From positions 135,099 through 199,098 of the IMG/VR virus record IMGVR_UViG_3300037993_001242: 64,000 nucleotides of DNA. One strand, written 5' to 3'. Below the pieces are notes generated by a model. That model did not search any database. It was not told the DNA's origin and saw only the letters and a program-made list of their open reading frames with translations. A program made the translations under genes and the position numbers. Positions 1,987-17,440 of this stretch are shown here, in pieces; the first letter of the stretch is position 1; each line of letters opens with the position of its first letter. Source of the DNA: a virus.

Positions 1987-2264
1987 ATGGCATGAATGAC
2001 GAATTCAGTCTGCTGCCCAGCGATCTGGACATGGCGCGTCTGGCGGGAATACCAGTCGATGGCCGGGTGGAAGCTGAAAATCAGACGTGGGTCTGCCTTC
2101 GTTACCCGACCAAACCCGCCAAAGGCTGGCAGTGGTGCGAATACTCCTTGATCGTCAACTGTCCTAACGTGCCTGCCCACGGGGGCACGTATGAGTTTAA
2201 GTGCTTGAAGGGTGTTGTCGCCTATTTACAACAATTGGAAAACGTACGAAAGGCCAACCATTGA
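1983..2264 (+). CDS. Hypothetical protein (93 aa)
   Basis: ATGA overlap with upstream gene and TTGA overlap with downstream gene. Confidence 0.7.
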   Translation: MNGMNDEFSLLPSDLDMARLAGIPVDGRVEAENQTWVCLRYPTKPAKGWQWCEYSLIVNCPNVPAHGGTYEFKCLKGVVAYLQQLENVRKANH

Positions 2265-2635
2265 AAGCCGCACAAATCGTAAACCAACTGCTGGAAGTTG
2301 GCCCGGATGAAATCAATCCGAAACGGGAAATGCTGCGCGTTGATCCGGCGGCGGACATCAAGGAAATCGTTCACGCCCTGCAAAACGAAGGCATTCTTAC
2401 GCTCGCGTACAAGAGGGCCGCCGACATCCTTAAACTTCACGTAAAACTGACCGAATGGACAACCGAAGAAAGGCTTGAAAACTGGCTACATGTGTTTTTA
2501 ACGGGACAACTGAATCTTCAAATTGACATCCACGGAATGACAACCAGAAATTTAGGCCCCGATTATAGTGGCACCGCGTATGAAGTCATGTTCCCGCTGA
2601 AAGGCCAACCCACGCCCTTTACAAAGTTGGTGTAG
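2261..2635 (+). CDS. LLE-leader / DPDE-family protein (124 aa, TTG start)
   Basis: Starts MKAAQIVNQLLEVGPDEINPK, matching the family at 15385-15989. Confidence 0.75.
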   Translation: MKAAQIVNQLLEVGPDEINPKREMLRVDPAADIKEIVHALQNEGILTLAYKRAADILKLHVKLTEWTTEERLENWLHVFLTGQLNLQIDIHGMTTRNLGPDYSGTAYEVMFPLKGQPTPFTKLV

Positions 2636-2639
2636 TTAA
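2633..2639 (+). promoter_or_regulatory. Candidate late promoter TAGTTAA
   Basis: Ends 3 nt before GTG 2643; same motif and spacing at other LLE-leader genes; its TAG is also the upstream stop. Confidence 0.45.
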
Positions 2640-2642
2640 AAC

Positions 2643-3755
2643 GTGATCGCTGAAACCATCGTCCGCGCTTTGCTGGAAGAAGTTGAAGACCAGCACCGCT
2701 TTGTGACCGTCGTCGTCCTGCGCAACCCGGACGACCCGGAAGTCCTGTTGGTGCAGCGCAAAAATCCGCCGGAAGCAGGCAAGTGGGGCGCGCCGGGCGG
2801 CCATGCCAATGAAGGCGAAGCGCTTACGGACGCAGCCAAGCGCGAACTTAAAGAAGAAACGGGTATTGAGGCCGCCCAACTTCATTACTTTGACCGCGTA
2901 TTCATCCCGGAACGGGATGCCTTCGACAACTTCTACTGGACGGTTGTAGACGATGACGCCAGTGCCCGCCGGGGTGACGATGCCAAACACGTCAAATGGA
3001 CGAAAGTGGCCGAGATCGGCGAACTGGCTTTCAACTGCCACGTACAGATCAAGGACGCGGCTGACCGGGCGTTCGCCATCGGCAAAATTGCCGAATCAAA
3101 AGCCGAGGGCAAGTATGGACGCAACGGCCTGCTGATCGTTTTCGAGGGCATCGACGGCGCGGGCAAAACCACGCAGGTCAGGAAACTGACCGGCTGGCTC
3201 GCCGAACGCGGCTACAAGGTCAAGACCACCAAATGGAATTCATCGGAAATCCTCAACGGCGCGCTGTACAAAGCCAAAAAGCACAAGGAACTTTCGCCCA
3301 TCCTGTTCAGCCTGCTCCACGCTGCCGACCTCACGTGGCGCTACGAGAACATCGTCCGGCCCGCCCTCGACAAAGGCAAAGTCGTAATCTGCGACCGCTA
3401 CTATTACACCAGTTACGTCCGTGACAGCCTGCGCGGCGTCAACGATGCGATCCTCGATTACATTTACGAGGACTGGCGCAAACCCGACGTGGTCTTTTAC
3501 TGCAAGGTTCCCATTCGCACAGCGGTCGAGCGCTTGCTGCGCGAAAAAGGCGTGTATTACTACAGCGCCGGGCGGGACATCGGCTACAAAGGCAGCAAAG
3601 AGGAGTGTGCCATGCAATACGAGGAGGACATGGAAAAGGTGTACAAGCGCCTTTTTGCCAAAGAACCCAGTGTGTCTGAGATTAGTACCGAACGCCCGAT
3701 CAGCGAAATAGCTGATGAAATCAAGGCTATTTTGAAGAAAAAGTTCGATGTTTAA
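2643..3755 (+). CDS. Nudix hydrolase - thymidylate kinase fusion
   Basis: Nudix box GGHANEGEALTDAAKRELKEETGI; dTMP kinase motifs LIVFEGIDGAGKTTQ and VICDRYYYTS. Confidence 0.9.
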   Translation: MIAETIVRALLEEVEDQHRFVTVVVLRNPDDPEVLLVQRKNPPEAGKWGAPGGHANEGEALTDAAKRELKEETGIEAAQLHYFDRVFIPERDAFDNFYWTVVDDDASARRGDDAKHVKWTKVAEIGELAFNCHVQIKDAADRAFAIGKIAESKAEGKYGRNGLLIVFEGIDGAGKTTQVRKLTGWLAERGYKVKTTKWNSSEILNGALYKAKKHKELSPILFSLLHAADLTWRYENIVRPALDKGKVVICDRYYYTSYVRDSLRGVNDAILDYIYEDWRKPDVVFYCKVPIRTAVERLLREKGVYYYSAGRDIGYKGSKEECAMQYEEDMEKVYKRLFAKEPSVSEISTERPISEIADEIKAILKKKFDV

Positions 3756-3810
3756 CTTTGTTAAAATTAGTTGTTGACAACCTTCCTGACTTATGGTTTA
3801 TTTGGCGCAC

Positions 3811-4203
3811 ATGAAAGATACATAGGTTTCAAACGGTTCCTGTCTCCGGCTCTACGCGCTCGTGCGCACGGATGCAGGCATGTCTCCCGGCAAGACAGCT
3901 TCACAGGCCGGTCACGCTTACCTCGGAGCGTTCATCGAGGCTTCCCGCAAAACTCCTGACGCCGTTGCTGTCTACAGCAGCGAGCATCCCACGCCCGGCA
4001 CCAAGGTCTGTCTCAAAGGCAACCTGAACACCCTCCGGCGCGCTCAGGAAGAAGCCCAGAAGGCGGGTATTCCCCACTGCTTGATCATTGACTCAGGCTG
4101 CAAAAATTTCTTCAATGGTGAGCCGACCGTCACGGCGCTCGGATTTGGCCCGGCCACTGAAGAACAACTCACACCGTTTTTAAGGAGACTTCAAGTTTTA
4201 TGA
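3811..4203 (+). CDS. pth2: Peptidyl-tRNA hydrolase, PTH2 family, with in-frame TAG at 3823-3825
   Basis: LYALVRTDAGMSPGKTASQAGHAY, TKVCLK, IIDSG and TVTALGFGP motifs; ATG 3811 is in frame and no ATG/GTG/TTG lies between the TAG and GTG 3862. Confidence 0.8.
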
Positions 4204-4210
4204 ACAATTT

Positions 4211-4356
4211 GAGCAAGTGGCAGAATGGGACAATGCAGACCACGGAGAAAACTACGGCTAACAACCGAGACGGCGAAAGTATACGCGTGAAATCGCTGGA
4301 ACAACGTGAAATCCTAACCGTGCGACTTGGTGGTTCGACTCCACCCTTGCTCACCA
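4211..4356 (+). tRNA. tRNA-like RNA 1 with about 65 extra nt in the anticodon arm
   Basis: Acceptor GAGCAAG/CTTGCTC plus A-CCA; D arm GCA-GAATGGGACAA-TGC; T arm GGTGG-TTCGACT-CCACC; helix CACGG/CCGTG encloses 72 nt. Confidence 0.8.
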
Positions 4357-4362
4357 ATTTAC

Positions 4363-4501
4363 GGGGTGCATTACACACAGAGGAAACTGGCCCTTGGGGT
4401 AAAAGCGCAGACCAGAGAGAACGTGTGGGAAGTAGCATTATGGCAATGCCGCAGTACGCAAGTGCTGTGCTAAGTGGGTTCGATCCCCACCCACCCCGCC
4501 A
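4363..4501 (+). tRNA. tRNA-like RNA 2 with a 63-nt insert in the acceptor strand and a GCAA tetraloop instead of an anticodon loop
   Basis: GGGGTG[insert 4369-4431]G pairs with CCACCCC, then G-CCA; D arm GCATT/AATGC; T arm GTGGG-TTCGATC-CCCAC. Confidence 0.7.
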
Positions 4502-4508
4502 ATTTAAT

Positions 4509-4588
4509 GCGGAGGTAGCTCAGTTGGCAGAGCGCGTGGAGCCTTCACAGGTTTCACGAGGTCGGACGTTCGATCCGTTCCCTCCGCG
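4509..4588 (+). tRNA. tRNA-like RNA 3 with an extended 9-10 bp anticodon stem; loop contains TCA
   Basis: Acceptor GCGGAGG/CCTCCGC; D arm GCTC-AGTTGGCA-GAGC; variable loop AGGTC; T arm GGACG-TTCGATC-CGTTC; no encoded CCA. Confidence 0.8.
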
Positions 4589-4601
4589 ACACTTACAAAC
4601 A

Positions 4602-5093
4602 TCACAACAGTCCGAGACTTTTATTTGTGACAGCCATCTTACCAAATATGCGCACAGATTCCTCGTCAAAGACAGCCGCAGCTTCCTGCGGCGTTGCATG
4701 GTATCCAAAATTTTTACGGCCATTGTTGATATAGATCACAGCGCGCCAAGGCCGTTTGCGATTTCCACGAGGATCAAGTTCAACACCTTTGAAGAAACTC
4801 TTACTGCTGCGCACAACCAGACATTGTCGCCTACTCTTGAGATTGCAGCGCATGTGACTAAAACCAACGTTGTTGAGATCGAAAAACAGTTCGATGGCGT
4901 TTGGTTCGTGCAGCCACGGTTTAACATGATCAATCGTAAAATCATTCACGGAAGCAATCAATTTTCCACAGCGTATACATGTAGCCATACCGGCTTTTAC
5001 TGCCAGCATATAAAGCAACATTTTCCGCAAACGATTACTGGCCGTACCAACTGACATGCCCAACTGCCTTGATTTTTCAGCATTTTTATCCAT
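4602..5093 (-). CDS. HNH endonuclease with C-terminal AP2 DNA-binding domain
   Basis: CIRCG...IDHVKP...SHMRCN HNH core; FKGVE...PWRAVIY...FGYHATPQEAAAVFDE AP2 pattern. Confidence 0.85.
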   Translation of the reverse strand: MDKNAEKSRQLGMSVGTASNRLRKMLLYMLAVKAGMATCIRCGKLIASVNDFTIDHVKPWLHEPNAIELFFDLNNVGFSHMRCNLKSRRQCLVVRSSKSFFKGVELDPRGNRKRPWRAVIYINNGRKNFGYHATPQEAAAVFDEESVRIFGKMAVTNKSLGLL

Positions 5094-5117
5094 ATAACAA
5101 AGAACAAAACAAAACCT

Positions 5118-5438
5118 ATGAAATTCACATCCAAAGACGAATACTTACGCTGGCGTTCCGAGTGGAAAGCCAATTACCAAACCCTCAGCCAGCAAATCCG
5201 AGACGTTAAATTCGCCCGGTGGTTCGAGGATTCACGGCGCGGCGGTGTCAAGATGAACGCGGCGCAGACCCAGCGCTACGAGGCCATCGCCAAAGCGCAC
5301 AAGACCCAGTGGGGCTTCTTCCCCAACCATGCGCTCAAACAGCTTCGGGACAAGGCCACAGCCCTGCTCGCCGAGCGCGTTGCCTCGAAGATCGCGGCGC
5401 AAGAGTGCTATCAGGCTCGCCAACTGCACCCGGCCTGA
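5118..5438 (+). CDS. Hypothetical protein (106 aa)
   Basis: ATG after an A-rich leader; fills the gap between flanking genes. Confidence 0.7.
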   Translation: MKFTSKDEYLRWRSEWKANYQTLSQQIRDVKFARWFEDSRRGGVKMNAAQTQRYEAIAKAHKTQWGFFPNHALKQLRDKATALLAERVASKIAAQECYQARQLHPA

Positions 5439-6692
5439 TCAGACGTGCAGAAACGTACGGCTGCCCGGCGGCTTGACCGCGTCATGGGCAGCCGTGTTGT
5501 ATTCAAGTGCGTGACGCGGTAACTCAAATTCAAATCCGCGATTCACCGCCGCTTGATTATCAAACGACAGTTGCACCCAAGTCACAGGGCCGTTGGGTTT
5601 TAGACCAAACTGATTAAGCGCCTTATTGACCTTGATTTTGGCTCCCCGTGCTGTGGCGTAAACATGGCCGTATACACGCCATTTATTTTCGTGGCGACAG
5701 ACGCCGATAGCGCGCAACCCAACACTGTCCATAGCCCACATGAGCTTGTCGACTCTGGCCTTGGTCTCGAATGTGGTTTTAATAAATTGACGCGGATCAA
5801 CGGCGTCAGGGTCTAAAGTTTCAGTCACGCGTTTGTTTGTTTCCAGCCACAACGCCATGGCTACATCCATGGCTGTACTATATGTTTTACCTTTGAAAAT
5901 TTTTGTTGGAACGCCCGTAGCGTCAATAACCCGCCATTTACCAGACTTGTTCAGACCTATTTTACCAAGGCCATTATTCCAGAGTGCATGTTCATCGGTT
6001 AAGACCGCGTACCAGTCAGCATATTTAGCAAACCTGAAATCTGGCGTTGTTAGGGTGTACGCCTTGGGATCAACGGCATCTGGATCAAGTGCCTCTTTGA
6101 TGCTGAATTCAGCTATCAATTGATCAAGGCGCACTCCCAGCAATGCGCGCTCAACGTATTTGGAACTTGTAAGCTCCCATCTGCCATTCTCACTTGTGTA
6201 CACTTGCACAGTAAGTTCATCGAGCGGCTCCCCCGCACCGAAATGGCTGTGGTTGGGCCAGACAATCAACTGATAATTGCCTATGTTTTTAAAGTAGAAA
6301 CCCGGAGAATCTTGTCTCGATGCTTCCAGCGCAAATCCGCGTTCACCCAGCGTCTTCAGCCAGTTAAAGGTGCTGCGCGCATAATGACGAGGATCAACAT
6401 CGTCAGGATCAGCTTCACGCAGCGCCATCAGCTTGTGTATACGCTGGGCGGCTGCCTCAGCAAATTGAGCGTGCCGGACGCGAATGGTGGTGATGGCGTA
6501 GCCCTGCTTACGTGCCTCCTGCCGGGCCTGTATGGACGCCTTGCCCTTGTTTTCAGCGTGGCCCGTGGCCAGCGCGTGGGTTTCGTCGGGCAGCGGCAGC
6601 AGCGACCAATACCAGATGTGGCTCCCGTTTATTGGAGCGGGCCGGTATTCAAGGGCGGCATACCTGCGTTGAAACAAGGCGTTAGCGTTCAC
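5439..6692 (-). CDS. DPDE-linker multi-module protein (417 aa, three linkers)
   Basis: LREADPDDVDPR, IKEALDPDAVDPK, VTETLDPDAVDPR. Confidence 0.85.
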   Translation of the reverse strand: MNANALFQRRYAALEYRPAPINGSHIWYWSLLPLPDETHALATGHAENKGKASIQARQEARKQGYAITTIRVRHAQFAEAAAQRIHKLMALREADPDDVDPRHYARSTFNWLKTLGERGFALEASRQDSPGFYFKNIGNYQLIVWPNHSHFGAGEPLDELTVQVYTSENGRWELTSSKYVERALLGVRLDQLIAEFSIKEALDPDAVDPKAYTLTTPDFRFAKYADWYAVLTDEHALWNNGLGKIGLNKSGKWRVIDATGVPTKIFKGKTYSTAMDVAMALWLETNKRVTETLDPDAVDPRQFIKTTFETKARVDKLMWAMDSVGLRAIGVCRHENKWRVYGHVYATARGAKIKVNKALNQFGLKPNGPVTWVQLSFDNQAAVNRGFEFELPRHALEYNTAAHDAVKPPGSRTFLHV

Positions 6693-6695
6693 ACG

Positions 6696-6702
6696 CTAAC
6701 TA
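6696..6702 (-). promoter_or_regulatory. Candidate late promoter TAGTTAG
   Basis: 3 nt before GTG 6692; independent of the upstream stop at 6707. Confidence 0.5.
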
Positions 6703-6706
6703 CCGC

Positions 6707-6922
6707 CTACAATAAGGTGCCCGCTGATGGCAAAATACCATCAGCGGGCAGTGAAAACAGTCTCTCCAGCTTAATCGACGGACGGTAAGCAATCTTCCGT
6801 TTGTCCGCCATGAACCGCTTGATCTGGACGTGGACGTACTTCGCAAACCGAGCCGCCCAGTAGCGGATCGTTGCCTCGTACACGAACTCGGTTACGAAAA
6901 TACGTACAAACCAAACGAACAT
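6707..6922 (-). CDS. Hypothetical protein (71 aa), probably leaderless
   Basis: ATG 6 nt after a sigma70-like -10 element. Confidence 0.55.
   Translation of the reverse strand: MFVWFVRIFVTEFVYEATIRYWAARFAKYVHVQIKRFMADKRKIAYRPSIKLERLFSLPADGILPSAGTLL
6718..6750 (-). terminator. 13-bp perfect inverted repeat, probable terminator
   Basis: TGCCCGCTGATGG-CAAAATA-CCATCAGCGGGCA just upstream of the candidate late promoter; weak U-tract. Confidence 0.55.
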
Positions 6923-6928
6923 GCCTAA

Positions 6929-6956
6929 ACTGTATACCGCGCTTTAAATTCGTCAA
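6929..6956 (-). promoter_or_regulatory. Sigma70-like promoter TTGACG-N16-TACAGT
   Basis: -35/-10 pair with GTATAC overlapping the -10; ATG 6 nt downstream. Confidence 0.6.
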
Positions 6957-6964
6957 CATAAAAA

Positions 6965-7180
6965 TTAAACGTCATTTTTCAGCCTGATGTGCTTAGTTTC
7001 GATGTCGAGCACGAGCGCTTCGACACGTTGAGCCAATTGTTCGGGCGGGCATTTGAGTTTTTCGGCCAGATGTTGCACCAGCACACGGTTAGTGACCATG
7101 CGCTGGTATTGTTTCCTGAGCCTACGTTTCCACTTCAGCCGTCGTTTTCGGGTAGACCAGATTCTGAGGACAATTATCAT
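6965..7180 (-). CDS. Hypothetical protein (71 aa)
   Basis: ATGA overlap with the Toprim gene. Confidence 0.6.
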   Translation of the reverse strand: MIIVLRIWSTRKRRLKWKRRLRKQYQRMVTNRVLVQHLAEKLKCPPEQLAQRVEALVLDIETKHIRLKNDV

Positions 7181-8070
7181 TTCTTTTTCTGATTGTCCGC
7201 ACGCAAGGACGCAACCGCCGTCCGTAGGAGTTTCTTGTCCTCTTCCTCTTTGGCTTTAACATCGTCCATTTTGTCTTCGTCCAAAACGTGACTGAACGCC
7301 TCGCGGATCACCTGTCCAAGAACTTCCGGCGGCAAGGCGTCAACTTCCCACGACTCATTGCCGTGCCGACCAACGTACGCCAAAGCCCGGCTGTCGCTCA
7401 TTTTGGCCGGGTTGGGCGGCGGGTTATACTCCTCGATCTGCTCCATCGTCAGGGCCAGCTTTTGCACCATCACTTCCGACCCAAACATGTGCAACCGCTC
7501 ACGGATGTCGCGCACCATATCCTCACCGGAGGGGTCGTGATCACCGAGGTAAAACAAAATGGAAGTCTGGCCGTTATTTTCGTGGCGGATCATTCGCTGC
7601 GCCGCCTCGTACAGGGCGCTCTGACTGGAATAGCCCTTGTTGACCATCATCGTGACGTGAAACTCGTTGGCAAGGGGCAGCAGCACGCCGGAAAGGGCAT
7701 CCTTCTCGACCCAAAGCTCAACATAGTGCTGCTGGCCCGCCCACCGGGGCAGCCGAAATGAGTGGAAAGCGGCGTCCAGCAATTCATCCAAATCCTCGAA
7801 TTCCGGCGGGGATTTGGGCACCCGGACGCGATCCTCAATAGCGTCCCAGTCAATCAGCCCGGCCAGCCGGGCGTCACTGATCAGCTTGCCGAGGTTTTTG
7901 TAGGACTTTTCCTCGTTGGTGATCAGGTTGGCGATGACATGCTGGTAATAAAGCTGGCGCAACGTCAGCTTGAGACCTTGGGCCTGATACCGGACAATAA
8001 TTTCATTGGCGACGCGAACGCGTTCGCGTTTTTCGTCGCTCCAGCGGCTTTCTACGAATGCTTGTTTCAT
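7177..8070 (-). CDS. Topoisomerase VI subunit A-like Toprim protein
   Basis: LTLRQLYY winged-helix segment; ELWVEKDAL; YLGDHDPSG (DxD); WEVDAL. Confidence 0.8.
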   Translation of the reverse strand: MKQAFVESRWSDEKRERVRVANEIIVRYQAQGLKLTLRQLYYQHVIANLITNEEKSYKNLGKLISDARLAGLIDWDAIEDRVRVPKSPPEFEDLDELLDAAFHSFRLPRWAGQQHYVELWVEKDALSGVLLPLANEFHVTMMVNKGYSSQSALYEAAQRMIRHENNGQTSILFYLGDHDPSGEDMVRDIRERLHMFGSEVMVQKLALTMEQIEEYNPPPNPAKMSDSRALAYVGRHGNESWEVDALPPEVLGQVIREAFSHVLDEDKMDDVKAKEEEDKKLLRTAVASLRADNQKKK

Positions 8071-8117
8071 AATATCTCTATACCAATAATGGGGACAGCG
8101 TTAACCCCTAAAGGACA

Positions 8118-8486: not shown

Positions 8487-8492
8487 ACCAGT

Positions 8493-8521
8493 AATGTATA
8501 CGGGTATGACAATAATGTCAA
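8493..8521 (-). promoter_or_regulatory. Sigma70-like promoter TTGACA-N17-TACATT
   Basis: Consensus -35, 17-nt spacer, GTATACATT core. Confidence 0.7.
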
Positions 8522-8540
8522 TAGAAAAATTTAATCGCCT

Positions 8541-9470
8541 CTACTTGGGTTCATGTGGCTCGTTGCCACCCGCATGACCACAAACATCGCCCCCGGTATC
8601 ATCCACCAAAACGCCCTGTTCCTGCTTGACCCGCTTGTTGCAGTGAGCGCAACGGTGAGACCATGTTGCTCCGAATTTACCGCGCTCTATATCCTGCTGA
8701 GTCAATTCGACCCATATCTGCCTTAATTGATCCCAGTCCCCTTTTTCGGCAACCCCCGCGTAAATTAAAATGGCCTGATCCAGATCATAACCGGCCTTCG
8801 TCAACTCCGCTCGCGCCAGCGCTTCAGCATCTTCCTTGGAAACAGCTTGAACCGGATAGTCAAGCGCCGGTGGGCCATCTACTTCAATATCCCTACCCTC
8901 AACGTCTTTGGCTCCCTCGAATGATACGATCCAGTAGTGACCGGGCAGCTTTTTAAGCATAACCCGTGGGTCAACTTCGTCGGGATCGATGGCTTCCCTG
9001 ACTCGTTGCACGCGATCCCGGTGGTCTGCCCATTCCTGTTTGGCGCGCTTTTTCTCCACGCCGGTCATGTCGAACGGACTGGTCACCATGCTCCAACGCC
9101 CGCAGGCGCATTTCCACCCATCCCACGATGATACCAATCGGCAGGGCTTGTGGCCGTGCTTGAGGCTGAAGCGCTTGAAGTTGATGTCATCAGGATCGAG
9201 CGCTTCGTTACGATATTTGGGCTTTGAAACGATCCCGTATTTTCGTTCCAGTTCTTCTCGTGGTGTATGGTATATTTCTTCCTCTTCCACTTGTTGGGGC
9301 CAATCACTGAATGGACAGGTTAAATCAGCACAGTATCCTGATTGGTCAACGTCACTACCGCATTTTTTACAAAAACCCGGTATGTGAAGTACTTGCTGTT
9401 TGAAGTCAACGTCGTCAGGATCAGCTTCCAGCAGGCGGGAAACGATGAATTGTGCTCGCGGGGTGTTCAC
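8541..9470 (-). CDS. LLE-leader, DPDE-linker multi-module protein (309 aa)
   Basis: IVSRLLEADPDDVDFK, NEALDPDDINFK, VREAIDPDEVDPR; Cys-containing modules lie between linkers. Confidence 0.85.
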   Translation of the reverse strand: MNTPRAQFIVSRLLEADPDDVDFKQQVLHIPGFCKKCGSDVDQSGYCADLTCPFSDWPQQVEEEEIYHTPREELERKYGIVSKPKYRNEALDPDDINFKRFSLKHGHKPCRLVSSWDGWKCACGRWSMVTSPFDMTGVEKKRAKQEWADHRDRVQRVREAIDPDEVDPRVMLKKLPGHYWIVSFEGAKDVEGRDIEVDGPPALDYPVQAVSKEDAEALARAELTKAGYDLDQAILIYAGVAEKGDWDQLRQIWVELTQQDIERGKFGATWSHRCAHCNKRVKQEQGVLVDDTGGDVCGHAGGNEPHEPK

Positions 9471-9796
9471 GACTGCGATACCGCGCTCATGGCCGTCTGC
9501 TCCACGTAGCGCTGGGCATCGTCACGCGTGGCAAAGCCATCTTTTTGGGGAGCGCGCCGGGGCATGGCAAACCAAGGACTTTGCAGCGTCCGGGCCTTGG
9601 CCTCCGGCGTCATGGACGGCGGCAGGTTGGTTTCCATGTGCTTGCTGATCATGCCCAGCCACCGGCCATCCGACGAATGTACACCGTAAACTTCCGGCTG
9701 GTCTTCGACCGGTTGCAGCGTGCTGGATAGAGGAGCCGCACTCGTCGGTTCATCTTCCAGCAAAAAGGATACCATCTGGCGTGCTCTGGTGCTCAT
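9467..9796 (-). CDS. LLE-leader protein
   Basis: MSTRARQMVSFLLEDE; GTGA overlap with the next gene. Confidence 0.65.
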   Translation of the reverse strand: MSTRARQMVSFLLEDEPTSAAPLSSTLQPVEDQPEVYGVHSSDGRWLGMISKHMETNLPPSMTPEAKARTLQSPWFAMPRRAPQKDGFATRDDAQRYVEQTAMSAVSQS

Positions 9797-9798
9797 GT

Positions 9799-10137
9799 TC
9801 AGCCGCTTGTTTTGTCGTCTTTTTGAGGATGCCACTTAAAGCGAGTGGTCAAATCGTGCTTGAACGACGGCGTTTCCGCTTTAGGCGGTATTTTAATCTT
9901 AATCGTCGGCCTGCTTGCTTTAGGTTCAGCCGAGATGGCTGAGGTTTGCTCGTCCGGCTCCACTGTTGGTACCTGCGCAGAATACGCCCGTTGACCCAAA
10001 AAGTCCTTGGCCGTGAATTTGAACTTTTTAAAACCGCTTTGCCGCCACGGATCACTTGCGCCACCAACAGGCACAGGTGTATTTCCAGCGTATTCCAGCA
10101 GCTTGTCTACGACTTCGGCAGCAGTTAGTTTGACCAT
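9799..10137 (-). CDS. LLE-leader protein
   Basis: MVKLTAAEVVDKLLEY; TAGTTAA 4 nt upstream. Confidence 0.65.
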   Translation of the reverse strand: MVKLTAAEVVDKLLEYAGNTPVPVGGASDPWRQSGFKKFKFTAKDFLGQRAYSAQVPTVEPDEQTSAISAEPKASRPTIKIKIPPKAETPSFKHDLTTRFKWHPQKDDKTSG

Positions 10138-10141
10138 TGCC

Positions 10142-10148
10142 TTAACTA
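10142..10148 (-). promoter_or_regulatory. Candidate late promoter TAGTTAA
   Basis: 4 nt before ATG 10137; not part of a stop codon. Confidence 0.5.
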
Positions 10149-10153
10149 CGACA

Positions 10154-10879
10154 TCATCTTCCACGATACCTCACCGAACCTTGGCGCACCAACGGACGAC
10201 CCATCCGATAACGCGTCAATCTTGATTTTGGCATCCGTACGATTGCCGGTGAATCTGGCTCCTTATTGATGGTGGCAAACGCCCGTTCAACCCGGCTGGC
10301 ATTCAAGCTTACAGGTAGTAGTGGTCTCGAAAACGCCCTTTCTATCCAAGCATCCATAAAAACATAAAGCTCCTTAATATCTTCAAACGAATGCGTGTGC
10401 AGAACACGAATGATGCCAATCATCTCCGTTTCAAATTCTTCCAGATCAGAGTGCTCATGTATCGAATAATGCCGGGTAAATTCACCGTCTGGCGTCACCA
10501 CCAACACATGCTTGATCCCGCGCCGCCCCGACACGCGCCGAAACCATCCAAAAGCAAACCAAGTCGTCAACGTGTTGTCCAAAACGTGACCATCCGCGCC
10601 ACAATTCACAAATATCCGGCAAAAACTTGCTGGACGCTTTGACCGTTCGTGTTTGTAGCCTCTGGCCAGTGGAACATCTCGAACGTATGCCTTGAGATGA
10701 TTGCTGCTCGCCGATTTATTAAGATTAAACTCCAAGCGCTTCAACCGCTCGGTTACGTTCAGATGATCCCATACGTAGAAATCGAGGGCGTCCGGGTCAA
10801 ACTTCTGGTGCTGGTGTTGAAGGGGCTTTTTCACTGGGTTCTTCTTTGTACCGCGTGAACGGTTTGATGGGTTTGTCAA
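10154..10879 (-). CDS. Hypothetical protein (up to 241 aa, start uncertain)
   Basis: Long ORF in the minus-strand run; contains a partial FDPDALDF motif. Confidence 0.6.
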   Translation of the reverse strand: MTNPSNRSRGTKKNPVKKPLQHQHQKFDPDALDFYVWDHLNVTERLKRLEFNLNKSASSNHLKAYVRDVPLARGYKHERSKRPASFCRIFVNCGADGHVLDNTLTTWFAFGWFRRVSGRRGIKHVLVVTPDGEFTRHYSIHEHSDLEEFETEMIGIIRVLHTHSFEDIKELYVFMDAWIERAFSRPLLPVSLNASRVERAFATINKEPDSPAIVRMPKSRLTRYRMGRPLVRQGSVRYRGR

Positions 10880-11321
10880 ACCAGACCACGCTGTCGTCGT
10901 TCATTTCCGCACCGACATAATCGGTCGGCAATATGGCCATTTGGCCTTCACTCGGTTTCCTGTACGCCGACCGCAAACCATAACCTTTAGCCGCTAAAGC
11001 GGCTTTTCCTTTGGCATACGGGCCGGTACCGGAATAATGAAGCTGCTCACCGGTGATAAATCGCTTCACATCTTTACGCTTTTTGCCGTACCGCGCAAGT
11101 TCGCGCTCAAGTTCTACCACACAACGAAGTTCGTCCCACGTAGCATCGGCTTTCCGACGCAGGGTCTTCAACTGGAGAAATTTGGCATGAATCGAATCCC
11201 AGTGTTTAAAAAGTTCAGAGTGTTCGCCGGTCGGCTCGTCGGCTCCCTGCGGCGGAGGCGGCACCGGCTGGTCAAGATCAGTTTCAGTCAAAACATCCAC
11301 TATGTTTTTCGCTTTGCTCAT
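10797..11321 (-). CDS. LLE-like leader protein (174 aa)
   Basis: MSKAKNIVDVLTETD followed by a Pro-rich linker; TAATTAG 3 nt upstream. Confidence 0.7.
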   Translation of the reverse strand: MSKAKNIVDVLTETDLDQPVPPPPQGADEPTGEHSELFKHWDSIHAKFLQLKTLRRKADATWDELRCVVELERELARYGKKRKDVKRFITGEQLHYSGTGPYAKGKAALAAKGYGLRSAYRKPSEGQMAILPTDYVGAEMNDDSVVWFDKPIKPFTRYKEEPSEKAPSTPAPEV

Positions 11322-11584
11322 AGTCTAATTACTTCGCCACACCGGACACAAACATCGCAGACATACTGCTTTTCCGTCACGTCATTGCCGTTTCTTAACA
11401 TTCGTTCAAACGTATCCAACGCTTCCATCTCCTCGCCTATCGGAGCCGCATCTATAAGGCGCTCCAAATCCTCAGCCGTCGACGGCGGATGATGAACATG
11501 AGAATCCACGCTGGCCGTGTTGTAGCGCGGCTTAAACTTATGGCCGAAAATCAGCCCAAACAGTCCTCGACAGCGCTTATTCAT
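11318..11584 (-). CDS. Small Cys/His protein, DUF1660-like
   Basis: CRGLFGLIFGHKF at the N-terminus and CDVCVRCG at the C-terminus. Confidence 0.55.
   Translation of the reverse strand: MNKRCRGLFGLIFGHKFKPRYNTASVDSHVHHPPSTAEDLERLIDAAPIGEEMEALDTFERMLRNGNDVTEKQYVCDVCVRCGEVIRL
11325..11331 (-). promoter_or_regulatory. Candidate late promoter TAATTAG
   Basis: 3 nt before ATG 11321. Confidence 0.45.
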
Positions 11585-12653
11585 TATTCAATCCAACCAA
11601 AGTATGATCGAGCCAAATCCGTTTATGGGTCTTCCAAAATCCCTGTTTGGCCGCTTCATCAGCGTTGGCCCAGTCTATGTAGCCATCCGCCGTGCGTGGC
11701 AGCAGGGCCACCGGCACCAATTCGCTCTTTTTGCCGATCACTTGATACGTCCAGTGAGCGGCCCGGCGATGAAGCGCCGGACTGGCATGGGTTCCGGTGC
11801 CGTCGCTCTGGCGCACCATGCGGTAATTGGCTCCGATAATGATGGGTGCCCAAATTGCCGGGCGTTCCACGCCTCGTTTCACTTTGGCTGGACGATCCAC
11901 TTTTTCCTTGCCAACCAGACCATCACGCCAGTTGAGTACGCACAGAAGTTTGAGCATCAACAATGACACTTTATCGGTGGCTTCCTTGTTCTTGGCCACC
12001 ACGTTTGCCGGGGCACCTGTCCAGTCGGTATAGTCAAAATCCTTCGTGATAGCGTCAGCCAAGGTCTCGTTCCAGTAACTGGACACGTAATTTTCCATAC
12101 GGCCATTTTTCCACGCATACCACATCCATGACACCTTGTCCTGTGTCGCCTCGATCTCCGGCGCGCCGGGAAAGTACTTGCAGGTCATCGGCTTTTTCCA
12201 TTGCTGACACGCGTATACATAGCAGGTATCGATACCCAGATAATCGTGCATGAATTTCGCTGGAAATCCAAAAACCAAGCCCGGCATGGGCCACTTCAGT
12301 TCCTCGATCCGCAGGTCTTTGGGCAGTTCCGTCGCCGCCACCGCCCGGATGAACTCGTCGGCCACGTAGTAAACCGGCACATCTTGGTTGATGACCTCGT
12401 AACAAATCGCCTGCGCTGTAATCCGTTGGGGTATCACCGGTCTGCCGGAAGCGATGTCCTCTGCATTCTCACCGACCATCACATGCAGCCCGACGGCAAC
12501 TTCCTTGCTGCTGTGATACGTGCCGGGAGCCTGTCGTTTTTTCGGCTCGTAGATGGACAACATCAAAAGCGGAATGTCGGCGTGCATATCCTGCATCACC
12601 GCGCTCAAGGTGGGCCAGCGCTGCATCATCTTAGCTTCGGCAGGATCAATCAT
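11577..12653 (-). CDS. Hypothetical phage protein (358 aa)
   Basis: Long ORF overlapping both neighbours; C-terminal SPALHRRAAHW motif. Confidence 0.75.
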   Translation of the reverse strand: MIDPAEAKMMQRWPTLSAVMQDMHADIPLLMLSIYEPKKRQAPGTYHSSKEVAVGLHVMVGENAEDIASGRPVIPQRITAQAICYEVINQDVPVYYVADEFIRAVAATELPKDLRIEELKWPMPGLVFGFPAKFMHDYLGIDTCYVYACQQWKKPMTCKYFPGAPEIEATQDKVSWMWYAWKNGRMENYVSSYWNETLADAITKDFDYTDWTGAPANVVAKNKEATDKVSLLMLKLLCVLNWRDGLVGKEKVDRPAKVKRGVERPAIWAPIIIGANYRMVRQSDGTGTHASPALHRRAAHWTYQVIGKKSELVPVALLPRTADGYIDWANADEAAKQGFWKTHKRIWLDHTLVGLNNE

Positions 12654-12885
12654 GGCATTCTGCCTTTTTAAGGAACCACCAAACCGCCGCTGCCAGCAGG
12701 AGATAGGCGAGTGCCAGAATCAGAAATTCCGTGTCCAGCCGGTCAATGCGGTGTTGTAGTTCGGCAATCTGGCCGCTGGCGTACGACGCGTTGGCTCTGG
12801 CCATTTCAAGGGTTTGGTGCATCATCTGCGCGGTAGGATCGTTGGTACCGTGAGGCAGAGCAATAACTGCAAACAAAGTTTTCAT
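12646..12885 (-). CDS. Small coiled-coil plus transmembrane protein
   Basis: C-terminal hydrophobic run FLILALAYLLLAAAVWWFL. Confidence 0.65.
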   Translation of the reverse strand: MKTLFAVIALPHGTNDPTAQMMHQTLEMARANASYASGQIAELQHRIDRLDTEFLILALAYLLLAAAVWWFLKKAECHD

Positions 12886-13991
12886 AATTTGGTTTCGATA
12901 TAAGGTTCAGGGAACGGTCGAGCCACAAATTTAAGTGACTCGAAATAGCGATAGTCGTCGGCTCCCGCAATGAAACCGTGGCCTTTCAAATTCAATACAA
13001 ATCGGGTGACATTTTCCGGGCCGTGACCATCCCAAATCTTTTCCGCGATGTCGCCCGCTTCCTGATACGCACCACAGGGCCAGAGGGTGTCAATAAAATC
13101 GGCTCCAGCCACGTAAACGTGGCCATGAATCAGGTATTTGATGCGTGGATAAGTCGCGAACAAATGCGCCTGTATCGGAGTATCTACGGAAGGTTTATGT
13201 TCACCAAAATACTTGTAGACAGTTTTTGGCCCCGACCCCGGAGTCAAGATCACCGGCACAAATCCATCCGCACCAATGGATGCTTTGTCGATGTTGCGCC
13301 GTGAAATAAAAGCAATGTCGCCATCCCGAAAGGCGGGAAAACCGTGACTACACCGAAAGGCAGCATTCCCGACGAAACGCTCAACGATCTTGGGCACTGG
13401 CAACAGCCCACTGAATTGCTGCGCTGCCGTGCGGATGTAATCAAAAAATCCGGTTTCTTCCGGCACTGGCGGTACGGCACCTTCAATCCGCTCGGTGCCA
13501 ATGCGCAGGACGGTCGCTAAAAACTTCAGACGATTGCCAATGGCACGGCCCATGTCCGTAAAATCCATGGACTCGTAAAACAAATTGCCCAACGGATCAT
13601 ATAAGCGGGCGCGATAACGGCTATCCTGCTTGGTGAATACAACGACCAGATTGGACTTCAGGTGAAGCGCGTGCTGGATGATTTGCGCCAGATCATAATT
13701 CTTTTCGACCACGCGCTTGGAAGTCACCAACAGGCAGGTTTTGTTCTGGGCCTTGATCTCGCGCACCGTGGTTTTGGGCGCGTCGTTGGGCACGTTGGCA
13801 ATCCAGATCACCGCAATACCGAGTGTACGCGCTGCCGCACTGGCCTCTTGCAATTTCTCCAGTCCGCCGCCATTGATAAAGATACCCTCTGCACCGAGAA
13901 CGTCGGCCACGCCGCGATGCAGCGCTGCCGCAAGACTGGAAGGTCTGCCGCCAGCATTGTCAAAATTGCCACCTACAAAAACGTATCTCAT
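12882..13991 (-). CDS. Fusion of an unknown alpha/beta domain and a class II aldolase/adducin domain
   Basis: GNAAFR, KPSVDTPIQ, LIHGHVY, PCG..EA and LKGHG match the class II aldolase metal-binding pattern. Confidence 0.7.
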   Translation of the reverse strand: MRYVFVGGNFDNAGGRPSSLAAALHRGVADVLGAEGIFINGGGLEKLQEASAAARTLGIAVIWIANVPNDAPKTTVREIKAQNKTCLLVTSKRVVEKNYDLAQIIQHALHLKSNLVVVFTKQDSRYRARLYDPLGNLFYESMDFTDMGRAIGNRLKFLATVLRIGTERIEGAVPPVPEETGFFDYIRTAAQQFSGLLPVPKIVERFVGNAAFRCSHGFPAFRDGDIAFISRRNIDKASIGADGFVPVILTPGSGPKTVYKYFGEHKPSVDTPIQAHLFATYPRIKYLIHGHVYVAGADFIDTLWPCGAYQEAGDIAEKIWDGHGPENVTRFVLNLKGHGFIAGADDYRYFESLKFVARPFPEPYIETKL

Positions 13992-14001
13992 GGTTCATTG
14001 C

Positions 14002-14029
14002 TGGCCTGCCAACAGAGGTTGGCAGGCCA
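14002..14029. terminator. 12-bp inverted repeat, possible terminator or RNA stability hairpin
   Basis: TGGCCTGCCAAC-AGAG-GTTGGCAGGCCA in the intergenic gap. Confidence 0.5.
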
Positions 14030-14043
14030 ATTCAACGCGTTGA

Positions 14044-14409
14044 TTATTGCTGCCGGTTTTTGCGCGCACGCACGGCAAGACTGGCCTTTTGCGCCCGCAA
14101 CAGTACGGCATACGGAACGTGCTCGCAACCAATGTACACGTCGCCCAATTTGCCATCATAGTCACCACCGTCATTGTCGACGGAAAAGTTGACCGTATGG
14201 CCGCCGGTGACTGATCTAATGGTCTTGGGCGGCTTGGGCTGGTCGTGCATGTACCGGGCGTGTTCCACAATGCGATCCAGTTCTGCCGCTGTCACCTGCT
14301 TCTTGCCTGCTTCCTCGCCGCCTTGATAGTCACAGATGGCTCCGGTGGCGTCCACACAGAGGGCCAAGTCACTTGGTAACGCTATGGTTGGTAGTTTGGT
14401 GTCTTTCAT
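14044..14409 (-). CDS. Hypothetical protein (121 aa)
   Basis: ATGA overlap; tiles the run. Confidence 0.65.
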   Translation of the reverse strand: MKDTKLPTIALPSDLALCVDATGAICDYQGGEEAGKKQVTAAELDRIVEHARYMHDQPKPPKTIRSVTGGHTVNFSVDNDGGDYDGKLGDVYIGCEHVPYAVLLRAQKASLAVRARKNRQQ

Positions 14410-14993
14410 AGTTTTGTCTGATGTTTTGTTTTACTGTTTGTTTTGATATTCCCGCCACGTGGCCGGAAAGCGCCGTAAATTTTCTTGGGAGGCTCGGCAA
14501 AGTAGCGCAGCAGCGCCGGGCAGAACCAACCTTCCATTTTGAGTTGCTCGCAAAAGTACCAGTCGCCGGTGCCGCTTTCGTCCCCGCGCAACCACGTTAA
14601 TTCGATGATCGTCCCCGGAAATGGCCGGTCGGAAAACATGCAGATGAATCCGTTTTCCGCATCAGGAATCTTGGAGGTTATCGTGTCGAGGATGGTGTCC
14701 ACCCCGGACACGAAAGCCTCCTTGTTCAATCCCGTGGCGGGGTCGTCAAAAACCCACAGTCCGTTCCACTTGTAGGGCATGATGACGCGGATTTCGTTGC
14801 GCGGTGAAACAAGGGCGCGGCAATCGCCCAAAGTCAATTCGACGCTGCTTAGTCCGTGCTGGGCATACGCGATCAGCGTATCGTCAGGATGCCGCTGATT
14901 GAAGCAGGGCGACCCTTCGTACAGGTCGTGGATGCGCACGATCTCCGCAATTTTTTGAAACGCCGAGGCAAACGTTGAGGGGGTATCGTTCAT
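14406..14993 (-). CDS. Protein with a DUF6717-like C-terminal domain
   Basis: PYKWNGLWVFDDPATGLNKEAFVSG...FPG...WFCPALLRYF pattern; start MNDTPST. Confidence 0.6.
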   Translation of the reverse strand: MNDTPSTFASAFQKIAEIVRIHDLYEGSPCFNQRHPDDTLIAYAQHGLSSVELTLGDCRALVSPRNEIRVIMPYKWNGLWVFDDPATGLNKEAFVSGVDTILDTITSKIPDAENGFICMFSDRPFPGTIIELTWLRGDESGTGDWYFCEQLKMEGWFCPALLRYFAEPPKKIYGAFRPRGGNIKTNSKTKHQTKL

Positions 14994-14994
14994 A

Positions 14995-15333
14995 TCAGTT
15001 GCGGCTGGCCGTGGCTTTGCGATAAACCCAAACGGCCATGTCTTTGGGCATGACGACGACCGTGACTTCGGCGGGATGATTGAGCACAAAGACGCCAGAA
15101 TGGTCGATCCCCTCTGATGTGTTGGCTTGAACGACCATGGCGCTGAACTCCGTGGATTTGCCCTCCAAGCCGCGAGAACCTTTGGGGGTGGATTTATCCG
15201 TCCAGACAATTTCACCGGTGTCAACTGCCTCGGTGAATCGGTGCAAGTACTTTACCGCGCTGGCAATCACGCCAACACCGTTGACGGCGGCAACCGCAGC
15301 ATCTCTTAACGCTTTATCGAAATTATCGTCCAT
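14995..15333 (-). CDS. Hypothetical protein
   Basis: ATG 15333 lies 9 nt after the promoter -10. Confidence 0.6.
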   Translation of the reverse strand: MDDNFDKALRDAAVAAVNGVGVIASAVKYLHRFTEAVDTGEIVWTDKSTPKGSRGLEGKSTEFSAMVVQANTSEGIDHSGVFVLNHPAEVTVVVMPKDMAVWVYRKATASRN

Positions 15334-15342
15334 GCTCAAAGC

Positions 15343-15371
15343 ACCGTATACAATAACCGGCACTCTGTCAA
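15343..15371 (-). promoter_or_regulatory. Sigma70-like promoter TTGACA-N17-TACGGT
   Basis: Consensus -35 and GTATAC core. Confidence 0.65.
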
Positions 15372-15384
15372 CACTAAAATTTAA

Positions 15385-15669
15385 CTAAAAAAGGCGCGAT
15401 TCAACCAGCGGTTCAAGCTCGGCGGCGTAAAAATATAGATTGTCTCCGGGTTCAAATCCGTCGACGTGTATCCAAACCGAATCTGGATCGTCGGTTGTTG
15501 TAACCACAGTTGCTTTTTCGCGAGGCCAGCCGCGCTTGTTGAGCATTACCCGTTCTCCCTTCAAAAATCTCTGCCGCTGCTGCGGACGCGCCATACGCAC
15601 ATAATGCTTCGGATCAACTTCGTCCGGGTCGGTTTCCAGCAACCTGTTTACAAGATCGTGCGTGTTCAT
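15385..15669 (-). CDS. LLE-leader / DPDE protein with an SH3-like body (94 aa)
   Basis: MNTHDLVNRLLETDPDEVDPKHY; FLKGERVML...ATVV...VWIHVDG...AELEPL. Confidence 0.8.
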   Translation of the reverse strand: MNTHDLVNRLLETDPDEVDPKHYVRMARPQQRQRFLKGERVMLNKRGWPREKATVVTTTDDPDSVWIHVDGFEPGDNLYFYAAELEPLVESRLF

Positions 15670-15989
15670 ACATTTTTAGGCCCGATGTATTGAATACTGA
15701 TGACGTAAGACACGTCATCCTTGGGCACCAAATCCGGTCGATTGAGCGCGTCAATGGCATTGAAAAACTGTTCCACCCAAATCGTTTCATCGATTTCATC
15801 GTCAGGTTCAGTCCCAGCGGGCGGCGCAAGCGGCACGATCACAACCGCAGTATATCCTTCTTCCGGCGTGGGCAAGTCAACGGTGACGTGGTACTCGTAC
15901 AGCAGGTTGATGTGCTGCAAATAGTCCTTCGGACGAAGTTCGTCCGGGCCAACTTCCAGCAACCGGTTTACAATGTTGTGCGCATTCAT
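15666..15989 (-). CDS. LLE-leader / DPDE protein (107 aa)
   Basis: MNAHNIVNRLLEVGPDELRPKDY. Confidence 0.8.
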   Translation of the reverse strand: MNAHNIVNRLLEVGPDELRPKDYLQHINLLYEYHVTVDLPTPEEGYTAVVIVPLAPPAGTEPDDEIDETIWVEQFFNAIDALNRPDLVPKDDVSYVISIQYIGPKNV

Positions 15990-17437
15990 CCGTGTCGTCT
16001 AATCCAACTAAGTATCAACTTTTTGGCTTCGAGTTCCGAAAGATCAAATTTTTGAGTTCCTTTGATGTTGTCTTCGCCCTCACGCCAATCCGCCACAGAC
16101 ACTGTCCACAGACCGTCCTCCTGCTTTCTTGCCGTGTAAACAAAATCAGTAGTGTTACGTTCAAAAGTAGGATAACTTACGGTTTGCCCCTGTATCACCG
16201 GCAATTCTGGATCAGCCACAAATTCCTTGTCCTCGCGTCCTTCAAAACCGTGCGCTCTAAGCCACGATTCAAAAGACTGCGGCAACTGCCGGAAAAGTTC
16301 TTTGGCTGGAGGCGGCTGATCCGGGTCAATCGACTCCACAACTTCTGGGATGTGCCGCCATTCCAATTTAGCCCTGCAACGGCCACACTCCTGCAAATCG
16401 AGATCATCTTCGTCGCCGGGCTTGATGCCGTTGAATCCAGCCTCCAGATACGAAAAATCATCCATCAACAACCCCCGGAAATGGCAGATCGGGCATTCCA
16501 CCAGTGGATTGCCAGTGTCTTCTGGATTGGCAATCACAATCAGTCGACCCTGAATCTTCAAATCACGCGGGGTCATCCCTTTGGTGTAATCTTTGGGCTT
16601 TATCTCGTCAGGATCGAGCGCTTCATTGACCGTCAATCCGAGCTTGTGGGCTAAATCAGGGCGCGCTCGTCGTATCCAAAGCGCCAGTGCTTTCTGGAAA
16701 ACAGTCATCGAAGCCGATGTCCCCCAACGATCAATATATTCCGCAATGTACCCCGTGCCTTCCATGGTTCTCAACGACTGAACATCTTCTGGATTTTCCG
16801 AACCAAAGTTGATTAGCGCGAGTTCATCCGAATCGTTTCGTCGTCTGCAATTGCTGTATACGTTCTCAATAAATTTATCAGACTTGGTAGCAAAGTATGG
16901 CGCAGCATCCGTTGTCACAGGTGGCACTCCCTCTGGCGCGTCCTCTTCATCCACCCAGATTTCCACCATGAATCGCTCTGGAATTTTTCGGAGAAATTCT
17001 TTGGGTTTAATTTCATCAGGATCGAACGCTTCGTCCATGCCGGGTGGCTCAAGATGGATGTCGTCCGCGTCTCCATGCTCCGGCGGCGAATACTCGTTAT
17101 CAACTGCTTGGGCAAAAACTTCAACAGGCTGTCCCGCCTCTTGTTCCATTTCGTCCTGCGGCTTCCAGCCTACACCGATCCAATGAACACTGGAATACGC
17201 GTATAATTTTGCCTGCCAGACGTAAATCCACAGCAAAGTCTTTCCTTCAGTGAAACGCGCCAATTTTTCGTATTGAGCTTCGTTGGGTTTCGACATCTGC
17301 ACAAAGCGCCAACCCAATTTTTCCAGTGCGCCCCGAATCTCCAACAGCAATCCCTTTGGCACATCAGACAGGTACTGACGTGGATTAACATCATCCACGG
17401 CATCAAGCAAAGCTGAAACTAGGCAGCGCGGCGTCAC
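15986..17437 (-). CDS. DPDE-linker multi-module protein (483 aa, four modules)
   Basis: VSALLDAVDDVNPR, MDEAFDPDEIKPK, VNEALDPDEIKPK, VVESIDPDQP; third module has CPIC...CGRC. Confidence 0.85.
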   Translation of the reverse strand: MTPRCLVSALLDAVDDVNPRQYLSDVPKGLLLEIRGALEKLGWRFVQMSKPNEAQYEKLARFTEGKTLLWIYVWQAKLYAYSSVHWIGVGWKPQDEMEQEAGQPVEVFAQAVDNEYSPPEHGDADDIHLEPPGMDEAFDPDEIKPKEFLRKIPERFMVEIWVDEEDAPEGVPPVTTDAAPYFATKSDKFIENVYSNCRRRNDSDELALINFGSENPEDVQSLRTMEGTGYIAEYIDRWGTSASMTVFQKALALWIRRARPDLAHKLGLTVNEALDPDEIKPKDYTKGMTPRDLKIQGRLIVIANPEDTGNPLVECPICHFRGLLMDDFSYLEAGFNGIKPGDEDDLDLQECGRCRAKLEWRHIPEVVESIDPDQPPPAKELFRQLPQSFESWLRAHGFEGREDKEFVADPELPVIQGQTVSYPTFERNTTDFVYTARKQEDGLWTVSVADWREGEDNIKGTQKFDLSELEAKKLILSWIRRHG

Positions 17438-17440
17438 GCT

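Follow-up and report, generated by a model that had tools for sequence, protein, structure and literature searches.

In bacteriophage T4, diverse internal proteins have as their sole conserved part a 10-residue capsid-targeting sequence ending in L/I-x-E (PMC9026906, PMC3012670), and the prohead protease gp21 is reported to cut Glu-specifically at L/I-x-E, at a glutamyl-alanyl bond, the SPN3US enzyme gp245 favouring Ser at P1' (PMC9026906, PMC10052503). Polyvalent proteins, which have InPase and 2H as signature domains, are predicted to be packaged and delivered together with the phage DNA (PMC5512222). Here we describe a conserved peptide junction that carries a candidate site for a gp21-type protease and recurs between unrelated modules of long open reading frames (ORFs), as well as behind a short N-terminal leader in small ones. 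It was found in the final 64 kb (hereafter the window) of a 199,098-bp virus contig from IMG/VR (IMGVR_UViG_3300037993_001242; GC content 53%), which derives from a large, uncultured phage of soil. The three long ORFs of the window are referred to as polyproteins A, B and C.

The pattern E-x(1,2)-[DG]PD-[EDAQ]-[VILP] gave 13 six-frame matches in the window, compared with means of 0.07 and 0.11 and a maximum of 2 in shuffled windows. A first-pass annotation, made by a model from the letters alone, had listed about 12 copies of this linker in six ORFs (2261, 5439, 8541, 15385, 15666 and 15986), and all of them were found where it had placed them: one copy in each of the single-module ORFs at 2261, 15385 and 15666, three in polyprotein A, three in polyprotein B (one of which is N-terminal) and three in polyprotein C, together with a degenerate N-terminal copy in the latter (Table 1). 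Single-module genes have their one junction copy behind a leader of 10–12 residues, and between the modules of the long ORFs only the hydrophobic-x-E and DPD segment is retained. The same annotation had described the Glu as nearly always preceded by a hydrophobic residue and any residue, which holds for seven of the eight internal copies, the exception being R-N-E, and the intervening modules of 70–150 aa as mutually unrelated, in agreement with our finding no BLASTP match among modules at E <= 0.01. Its further proposal, that codons vary synonymously and that selection acts on the peptide, was confirmed with 23 aligned N-terminal copies, in which codon pairs for identical residues differ in 53% of cases and the residues V(-5), L(-2), L(-1) and E(0) are each encoded by two to four synonymous codons. 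Because several synonymous codons are used and internal linkers are only 54% identical at the nucleotide level (longest exact run, 17 nt), we conclude from the codon patterns that it is the peptide, not the DNA, that is under selection at the junction.

The consensus derived from database proteins is [LVI]-x-E-[AS]-x-DPD-x-[VI]-[DN]-P-[KR]-x-Y-L; the junction consists of the end of an amphipathic helix, the site [LVI]-x-E with [AS] after it, and the extended, acidic, proline-rich stretch D-P-D-x-[VI]-[DN]-P-[KR]-x-Y-L. When 93 sites were anchored solely on [DG]PD-x3-P-[KRHQ], with no Glu required, a Glu was nevertheless present 1–3 residues upstream of DPD in 87, Y occupied position +9 in 62 and L position +10 in 55. 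Over 112 sites, P3 is L, V or I in 77% and hydrophobic in 86% (background, 31%), P2 is variable and P1' is A or S in 79%; modules in this set have a median length of 103 aa. Since P3 is L/V/I, P1 is Glu and P1' is A/S, this pattern matches the specificity of gp21 and gp245, supporting the view that the junction carries the consensus of the Glu-specific gp21-type proteases.

A protease of this type, which the first-pass annotation had proposed to look for, is encoded in the same genome outside the window, as is the major head protein (phrog_138). The head-maturation protease belongs to family S77 (PF03420, 60.9 bits; phrog_207), and its best match in the PDB is T4 gp21 (5JBL, E 4e-6), with the S-R-G serine motif aligned. 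The protease, which takes up the first ~190 aa, and a coiled-coil scaffold form a single protein of 571 aa (genome 25726–27441, minus strand), and such a fusion is present in all five relatives sampled. Among the genome's ORFs of >=80 aa, the fusion ranks first for composition-corrected excess of [LIV]-x-E-[AS] (9 observed and 1.67 expected, z 5.5), and in three of four relatives (G001, G004 and G005) the fusions have z values of 5–8. One such site, located just before a C-terminal R-R-L-S tail, is conserved in four of five phages; the ortholog in G005 has Q-R-L-S. These data indicate, indirectly, that the junction bears a site enriched in what is predicted to be the canonical substrate of the phage's own protease.

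The leader, M-x-A-[KR]-Q-[LI]-V-x-x-L-L-E, was detected by a whole-genome profile scan on at least 23 ORFs, 0–4 residues from the start codon. These ORFs are spread over positions 42–152 kb of the genome on both strands. In 14 of the 23, the Glu is followed by [DG]-P-D-[ED]-[VL]-x-P-[KR]-x-Y, and in the other nine the leader lacks the DPD part and an acidic, proline-rich stretch comes next. All 23 aligned copies have V(-5), L(-2) and E(0), and 21 of them have L(-1). The bodies of these proteins are unrelated and share no common Pfam family, a weak HAD-phosphatase match and weak zinc-ribbon matches being the only ones obtained. Outside the window, two paralogs lie in tandem (genome 122685–124124 and 124177–124983, both on the plus strand), the first tagged and the second untagged, and homology between them begins at residue 1 of the untagged copy. 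Because the tagged paralog has 10 extra residues, the leader, in front of this homologous N-terminus, we conclude from the alignment that the leader is an add-on separable from the protein body.

There are several parallels to the T4 capsid-targeting sequence, which gp21 removes from IPI, IPII, IPIII and Alt: 10–12 residues ending in L-x-E are the only conserved part of unrelated small proteins, the phage has a gp21-family protease, and the tagged genes are hypervariable between related phages. In contrast to T4 and its handful of such proteins, however, there are some 23–30 tagged genes here, conservation extends about 12 residues beyond the Glu, polyproteins contain the site several times over, and there are C-terminal copies. 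The phage is, moreover, only distantly related to T4, and packaging of the tagged proteins is a prediction.

We then considered the modules themselves. An AlphaFold2 model of polyprotein A, built from a 9-row alignment, contains confident alpha/beta domains at residues 10–75, 111–200 and 310–410 (predicted template modelling score 0.30), with confidence below 50 over residues 77–108 and 200–307 and a helix leading up to each junction Glu. Thus, the linkers were predicted to fall between independent domains, and linkers buried in folds, which the first-pass annotation had named as a case that would refute its reading, were not seen; the model supports the junction as a separator of independent modules. 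A single-sequence model of polyprotein C was uninformative (mean predicted local distance difference test score (pLDDT), 37). A Foldseek search with the polyprotein A model gave no PDB match at E <= 0.001 and, in BFVD, only low-scoring (template modelling score) matches to uncharacterised large-phage proteins. Likewise, Pfam and PHROGs searches with the six junction ORFs gave nothing above threshold, the sole Pfam match in the three long ORFs being a sub-threshold zinc ribbon. In database relatives, Pfam domains lie wholly within modules. The InPase domain of P0005 (residues 197–332, 172 bits) is located between junctions near residues 100 and 350, the Imm5-like domain of P0003 (residues 290–369) starts immediately past a junction ending at residue 289, the zinc ribbons of P0002 are likewise between junctions, and a 2H phosphoesterase (2_5_RNA_ligase2) is also contained within a module.

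The idea that the linker serves as a junction for moving modules between genes was examined by cutting all proteins at their junctions and clustering the resulting modules, and exchange at the junctions was indeed seen. Clustering yielded 24 recurring module types whose order varies. Polyprotein A has the order B-H-O-C, and its relatives B-G-H-N-G-C, B-H-H-P-C and B-T-N-G-K-P-C, in addition to an 11-module form, so that one architecture is set apart from another by cassettes inserted, lost or duplicated between junctions. Module N is also the first module of polyprotein B, right behind its N-terminal leader, and module Q is common to polyprotein C and an unrelated architecture. One module type can be found behind either the N-terminal leader or an internal junction.

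To follow the junction beyond this genome, five large relatives were recovered via the major capsid protein (MCP). The leader is present on 8 ORFs of G001 (MCP 91% identical) and on at least 4 of G005 (88%), and another leader variant occurs in G004 (68%). G002 (80%) has the variant M-S-R-A-R-x-I-L-E-A-E-[TS]-P-[RK]-x-F-L at N-termini and within long ORFs, leader and internal copies being altered alike to h-h-E-A-E-[TS]-P-[RK]-x-F-L (h, hydrophobic); therefore, the N-terminal junction and the internal linker change together. A homolog search with polyprotein A identified P0002, an ortholog of 682 aa with six junctions, as well as P0003 and P0004, in which the same junction accompanies, respectively, an Imm5-like domain and a 2H phosphoesterase with weak GNAT domains. 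An exhaustive HMMER search of 1.84 billion representative sequences with a junction profile returned 27 proteins (E <= 0.001), of which 14 reach E <= 1e-10; single proteins are as long as 2419 aa and contain as many as 14 junction stretches and 12 modules. P0029 (2383 aa, 11 junctions), a cluster member, is encoded on a 145-kb contig, and a 2543-aa relative (47% identical) lies on a 113-kb metagenome contig, after helicase and replication genes and before large ORFs of unknown function (locus L130). No junction polyprotein was found in the cultured-phage collection, where a tblastn search with P0029 matched its 2H module only, and an IMG/VR related-locus search with polyprotein C, P0016 and P0005 gave no relatives. 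A degenerate DNA pattern for DPD-x-[VI]-DPK had 5 matches in IMG/VR, all single copies without an upstream Glu, and these were set aside as probably due to chance.

Like the polyvalent proteins (Iyer, Burroughs, Anand, de Souza, Aravind 2017, PMC5512222), the junction proteins string 2 to more than 10 unrelated, possibly conflict-type domains together in a single polypeptide and are extensively shuffled, and delivery with the DNA is predicted; InPase and 2H phosphoesterase occur in database relatives. In that study, however, the main text never uses the word 'linker' and so describes no conserved inter-domain junction; the processing proposed there depends on peptidase domains, MPTase or others, within the proteins themselves, and the junction proteins have none; most modules here are small and match no family. 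A second parallel is offered by the head and ejection proteins of phiKZ, 201phi2-1 and SPN3US, many of which are cut at short Glu-specific motifs by S77-like enzymes (gp175, gp245), several times per precursor. In those phages, repeated cleavage does away with long propeptides and a single mature fragment survives, whereas here each product would be a separate folded module and the site lies within a long conserved junction. As in the polyproteins of eukaryotic RNA viruses, a single translation product is predicted to contain a repeated, conserved cleavage junction between functional units, but this is an analogy without homology: the protease gene is located elsewhere in the genome, and cleavage would yield accessory cargo, not replication or structural proteins. 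The accessible literature covers the capsid-targeting sequence and the polyvalent proteins, and no reiterated conserved junction is described there.

A hexanucleotide at the starts of these genes also bears on when they might be expressed. TA[AG]TTA is found 2–15 nt (mostly 4 nt) before 47 ORF starts; it occurs only 82 times genome-wide, is rarer overall than composition predicts and often overlaps the stop codon of the upstream gene. ORFs preceded by TA[AG]TTA include those for the neck adaptor, a core-like protein upstream of the protease, the tail chaperone and polyproteins A and C, as well as about 14 leader ORFs, which fits TAGTTA-N4 being a putative late-gene signal. The extended form (G)TA[AG]TTA is distributed over window positions 2633–49866 and genome-wide (for example, at window 6693–6702 and 17438–17447) and may be a late promoter yielding leaderless mRNAs or, alternatively, a reinitiation signal. 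The T4 late promoter TATAAATA is absent, its single copy being about what chance would give.

Taken by analogy with the systems above, the long ORFs can be read as cassette polyproteins, a subtype of the polyvalent proteins in which one conserved junction connects small, unrelated modules of effector type (median about 100 aa): cargo that carries a capsid-targeting-type leader and is cut at the junctions during head maturation. We give this reading about an even chance. The leader would dock the protein onto the prohead scaffold core, as the T4 capsid-targeting sequence does, and the S77 protease would then cleave after each junction Glu, stripping the leader and freeing each module as a small protein that starts with [AS]-x-DPD; freed modules would stay inside the head and would probably enter the host by ejection. 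Packaging, cleavage and ejection of the modules are thus steps that we infer from analogy and indirect evidence. Should cleavage at the junctions take place in the prohead, no phage system before this one would have made accessory or counter-defence proteins as true polyproteins whose conserved processing site is reiterated. The T4 capsid-targeting idea, which covers a handful of proteins, would then extend to roughly a tenth of a genome, and some of the polyvalent proteins that lack a peptidase would acquire their processing step. Leader plus junction would become a sequence rule from which virion cargo and module boundaries could be predicted in uncultured phages, and possibly a packaging tag. 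A broader form of the proposal, which we regard as possible but somewhat doubtful, is that the junction is the universal plug of an undescribed cargo-loading system, such that any small domain placed behind it, whether on its own with a leader or as a bead in a polyprotein of up to 2400 aa, would enter the prohead and be freed by the S77 protease while keeping a common N-terminal handle. The handle, [AS]-x-DPD...P-K-x-Y-L, would then have a second role, for example in DNA retention, ordered ejection or host docking, and the system would amount to modular, evolvable arsenal delivery across uncultured large phages.

Several observations weigh against processing of packaged cassette polyproteins. 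The tagged genes sit amid accessory and nucleotide-metabolism genes on both strands, away from the head module. The canonical leader is missing from polyprotein A and its orthologs, whose N-terminus was modelled as a beta-strand of module B. The scaffold of G002 has a weak site excess (z 1.8), a looser TAGTTA variant also precedes the DNA polymerase gene, and junction conservation does not exceed that of the modules in two of three ortholog pairs. About 30 tagged genes plus the polyprotein modules imply some 45 cargo species, which is many; phiKZ-like heads contain about 50 proteins. In addition, the conserved stretch of about 20 residues is far longer than gp21-type cleavage is known to need, so that the DPD...P-K-x-Y-L part wants another explanation; because it exceeds a bare cleavage site, it probably has a second role besides that of a cut site. 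Finally, leader-like helices (A-x-Q-[IV]-V-x-x-L-L-E) are present at the extreme C-terminus of three ORFs of this genome, 1–5 residues before the stop codon (Table 1), and one is found in G001 (near 61063, minus strand), a location that suits a binding tag better than a removable propeptide. These last two points raise the possibility that the junction is an uncleaved docking peptide, a short linear motif binding one common partner (a phage hub or a host machine), with the tagged small proteins as clients and the polyproteins as multivalent scaffolds showing up to 14 copies. The strength of the downstream P-[KR]-x-Y-L-[KR]-x-[LV]-P and the presence of tags on about 10% of the genes, a HAD-like enzyme among them, are in keeping with docking, and even if uncleaved, a 20-residue peptide that recurs over 100 times in conserved form from one unrelated domain to the next suggests that some shared partner exists. 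Docking leaves unexplained, however, why the Glu essentially never becomes Asp and why the P3/P1/P1' pattern equals the site over-represented in the same phage's scaffold, and no candidate partner was identified; we consider it rather unlikely.

The gene neighbourhood and the missing leader of polyprotein A would also suit cutting outside the prohead by a different cytoplasmic protease, of host or phage, in which case the long ORFs would be expression polyproteins releasing early effectors in the cell, and gp21-type proteases themselves can act on cytoplasmic substrates (PMC12991175). This appears distinctly improbable, given that searches turned up no other protease (the genome lacks PF18818 and the polyproteins have no peptidase match in Pfam), that the site matches the S77 consensus and that single-module genes would gain nothing from losing a 12-residue leader in the cytoplasm. 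Very improbable, in our estimation, is that the internal junctions have no protein function, being either vestigial tags left by gene fusions or a DNA-level recombination site. Modules clearly do move between genes, some internal copies retain most of the leader helix (P0009 at 313, P0016 at 1539), and junctions are most alike within one protein. Yet the residues are the same in more than 100 internal copies, although the proteins containing them have low identity overall, in the ortholog pair of polyprotein C and P0006 the junctions are 81% identical and the modules 54%, and the 54% nucleotide identity of junction DNA, with its synonymous variation, is too low for homologous recombination, which rules out DNA-level recombination as the cause of conservation. 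A 2A-like ribosome-skipping peptide and acid-labile Asp-Pro bonds were also considered and were dropped as unsupported.

Table 1. Positions of junction-bearing ORFs, junctions, leaders and related tags (window numbering unless marked genome; residue numbers refer to the encoded protein)
Feature	Position	Strand	Remarks
Single-module ORF	2261..2635	+	TTG start; N-terminal leader and G-P-D-E junction
Polyprotein A	5439..6692	-	417 aa; four modules, B-H-O-C; TAGTTA-N4-start in front
Polyprotein A junction 1	6375..6422	-	Residues 91-106; L-R-E-A-DPD type; pLDDT <50 over 77-108
Polyprotein A junction 2	6051..6101	-	Residues 198-214; I-K-E-A-L-DPD; helix 182-200 ends at Glu
Polyprotein A junction 3	5778..5828	-	Residues 289-305; V-T-E-T-L-DPD
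Polyprotein B	8541..9470	-	309 aa; N-terminal leader and three modules (N-M-.), zinc-ribbon modules included
Polyprotein B N-terminal leader and junction	9393..9470	-	Residues 1-26
Polyprotein B internal junction	9162..9212	-	Residues 87-103; R-N-E-A-L-DPD
Polyprotein B internal junction	8952..9002	-	Residues 157-173; V-R-E-A-I-DPD
Leader-only ORF	9467..9796	-	109 aa; leader ending L-L-E, without DPD segment
Leader-only ORF	9799..10137	-	112 aa; TAGTTA in front
Leader-only ORF	10797..11321	-	174 aa; leader variant ending L-T-E
Single-module ORF	15385..15669	-	94 aa; full leader and DPD junction
Single-module ORF	15666..15989	-	107 aa; full leader and G-P-D-E junction
Polyprotein C	15986..17437	-	483 aa; four modules, U-Q-V-.; degenerate N-terminal leader (L-L-D); TAGTTA-N4-start in front
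Polyprotein C junction 1	16988..17038	-	Residues 134-150
Polyprotein C junction 2	16580..16630	-	Residues 270-286
Polyprotein C junction 3	16292..16342	-	Residues 366-382; degenerate here and in ortholog P0006
C-terminal leader-like helices	Genome 79657-79920; 118381-118686; ORF ending near 128514	-; -; +	Outside the window
Second tag family ORFs	22517-23029, 32767-33348, 49600-49857, 58914-59207, 59977-60243, 60982-61272, 63032-63349	-	

As to the source genome, a megablast search of the region against cultured phages gave no match. Because the nearest cultured major capsid proteins are no more than 30% identical, we conclude from capsid sequence that this is a deep-branching large phage and not a close relative of T4. 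Phage functions encoded in the window include a NUDIX-thymidylate kinase fusion, a topoisomerase-like protein and an AAA ATPase. Outside the window, two acidic, Ala/Pro-rich ORFs lie immediately upstream of the protease-scaffold gene (genome 27959–29250, minus strand; locus L003:8962–10250), in the position of T4 gp67 and gp68; they have leader-like starts ending in I-Q-E and L-G-E and contain more h-x-E sites. A small HAD-phosphatase-like tagged protein, an enzyme of recognisable fold, is encoded at genome 42198–42548 on the plus strand (locus L004:4198–4548), and its D-x-D-G-T motif starts a few residues past the L-L-E of the leader.

The NUDIX-thymidylate kinase fusion of the window is a 370-aa ORF (2643–3755, plus strand) in which a NUDIX hydrolase is fused to thymidylate kinase; it has a TAGTTA-N4 start, and its N-terminus is weakly leader-like. 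Its ortholog in G001, a 462-aa open frame on the minus strand, ends in an additional zinc-ribbon module, a homolog of the second module of polyprotein C that is joined via an L-L-E-D-I-D-D-P junction. A second N-terminal tag family, M-I-P-E-E-G-[ST]-x-x-[DE]-F-K-x-x-V-L, was observed on about 10 small ORFs, mainly in the right half of the window (Table 1).

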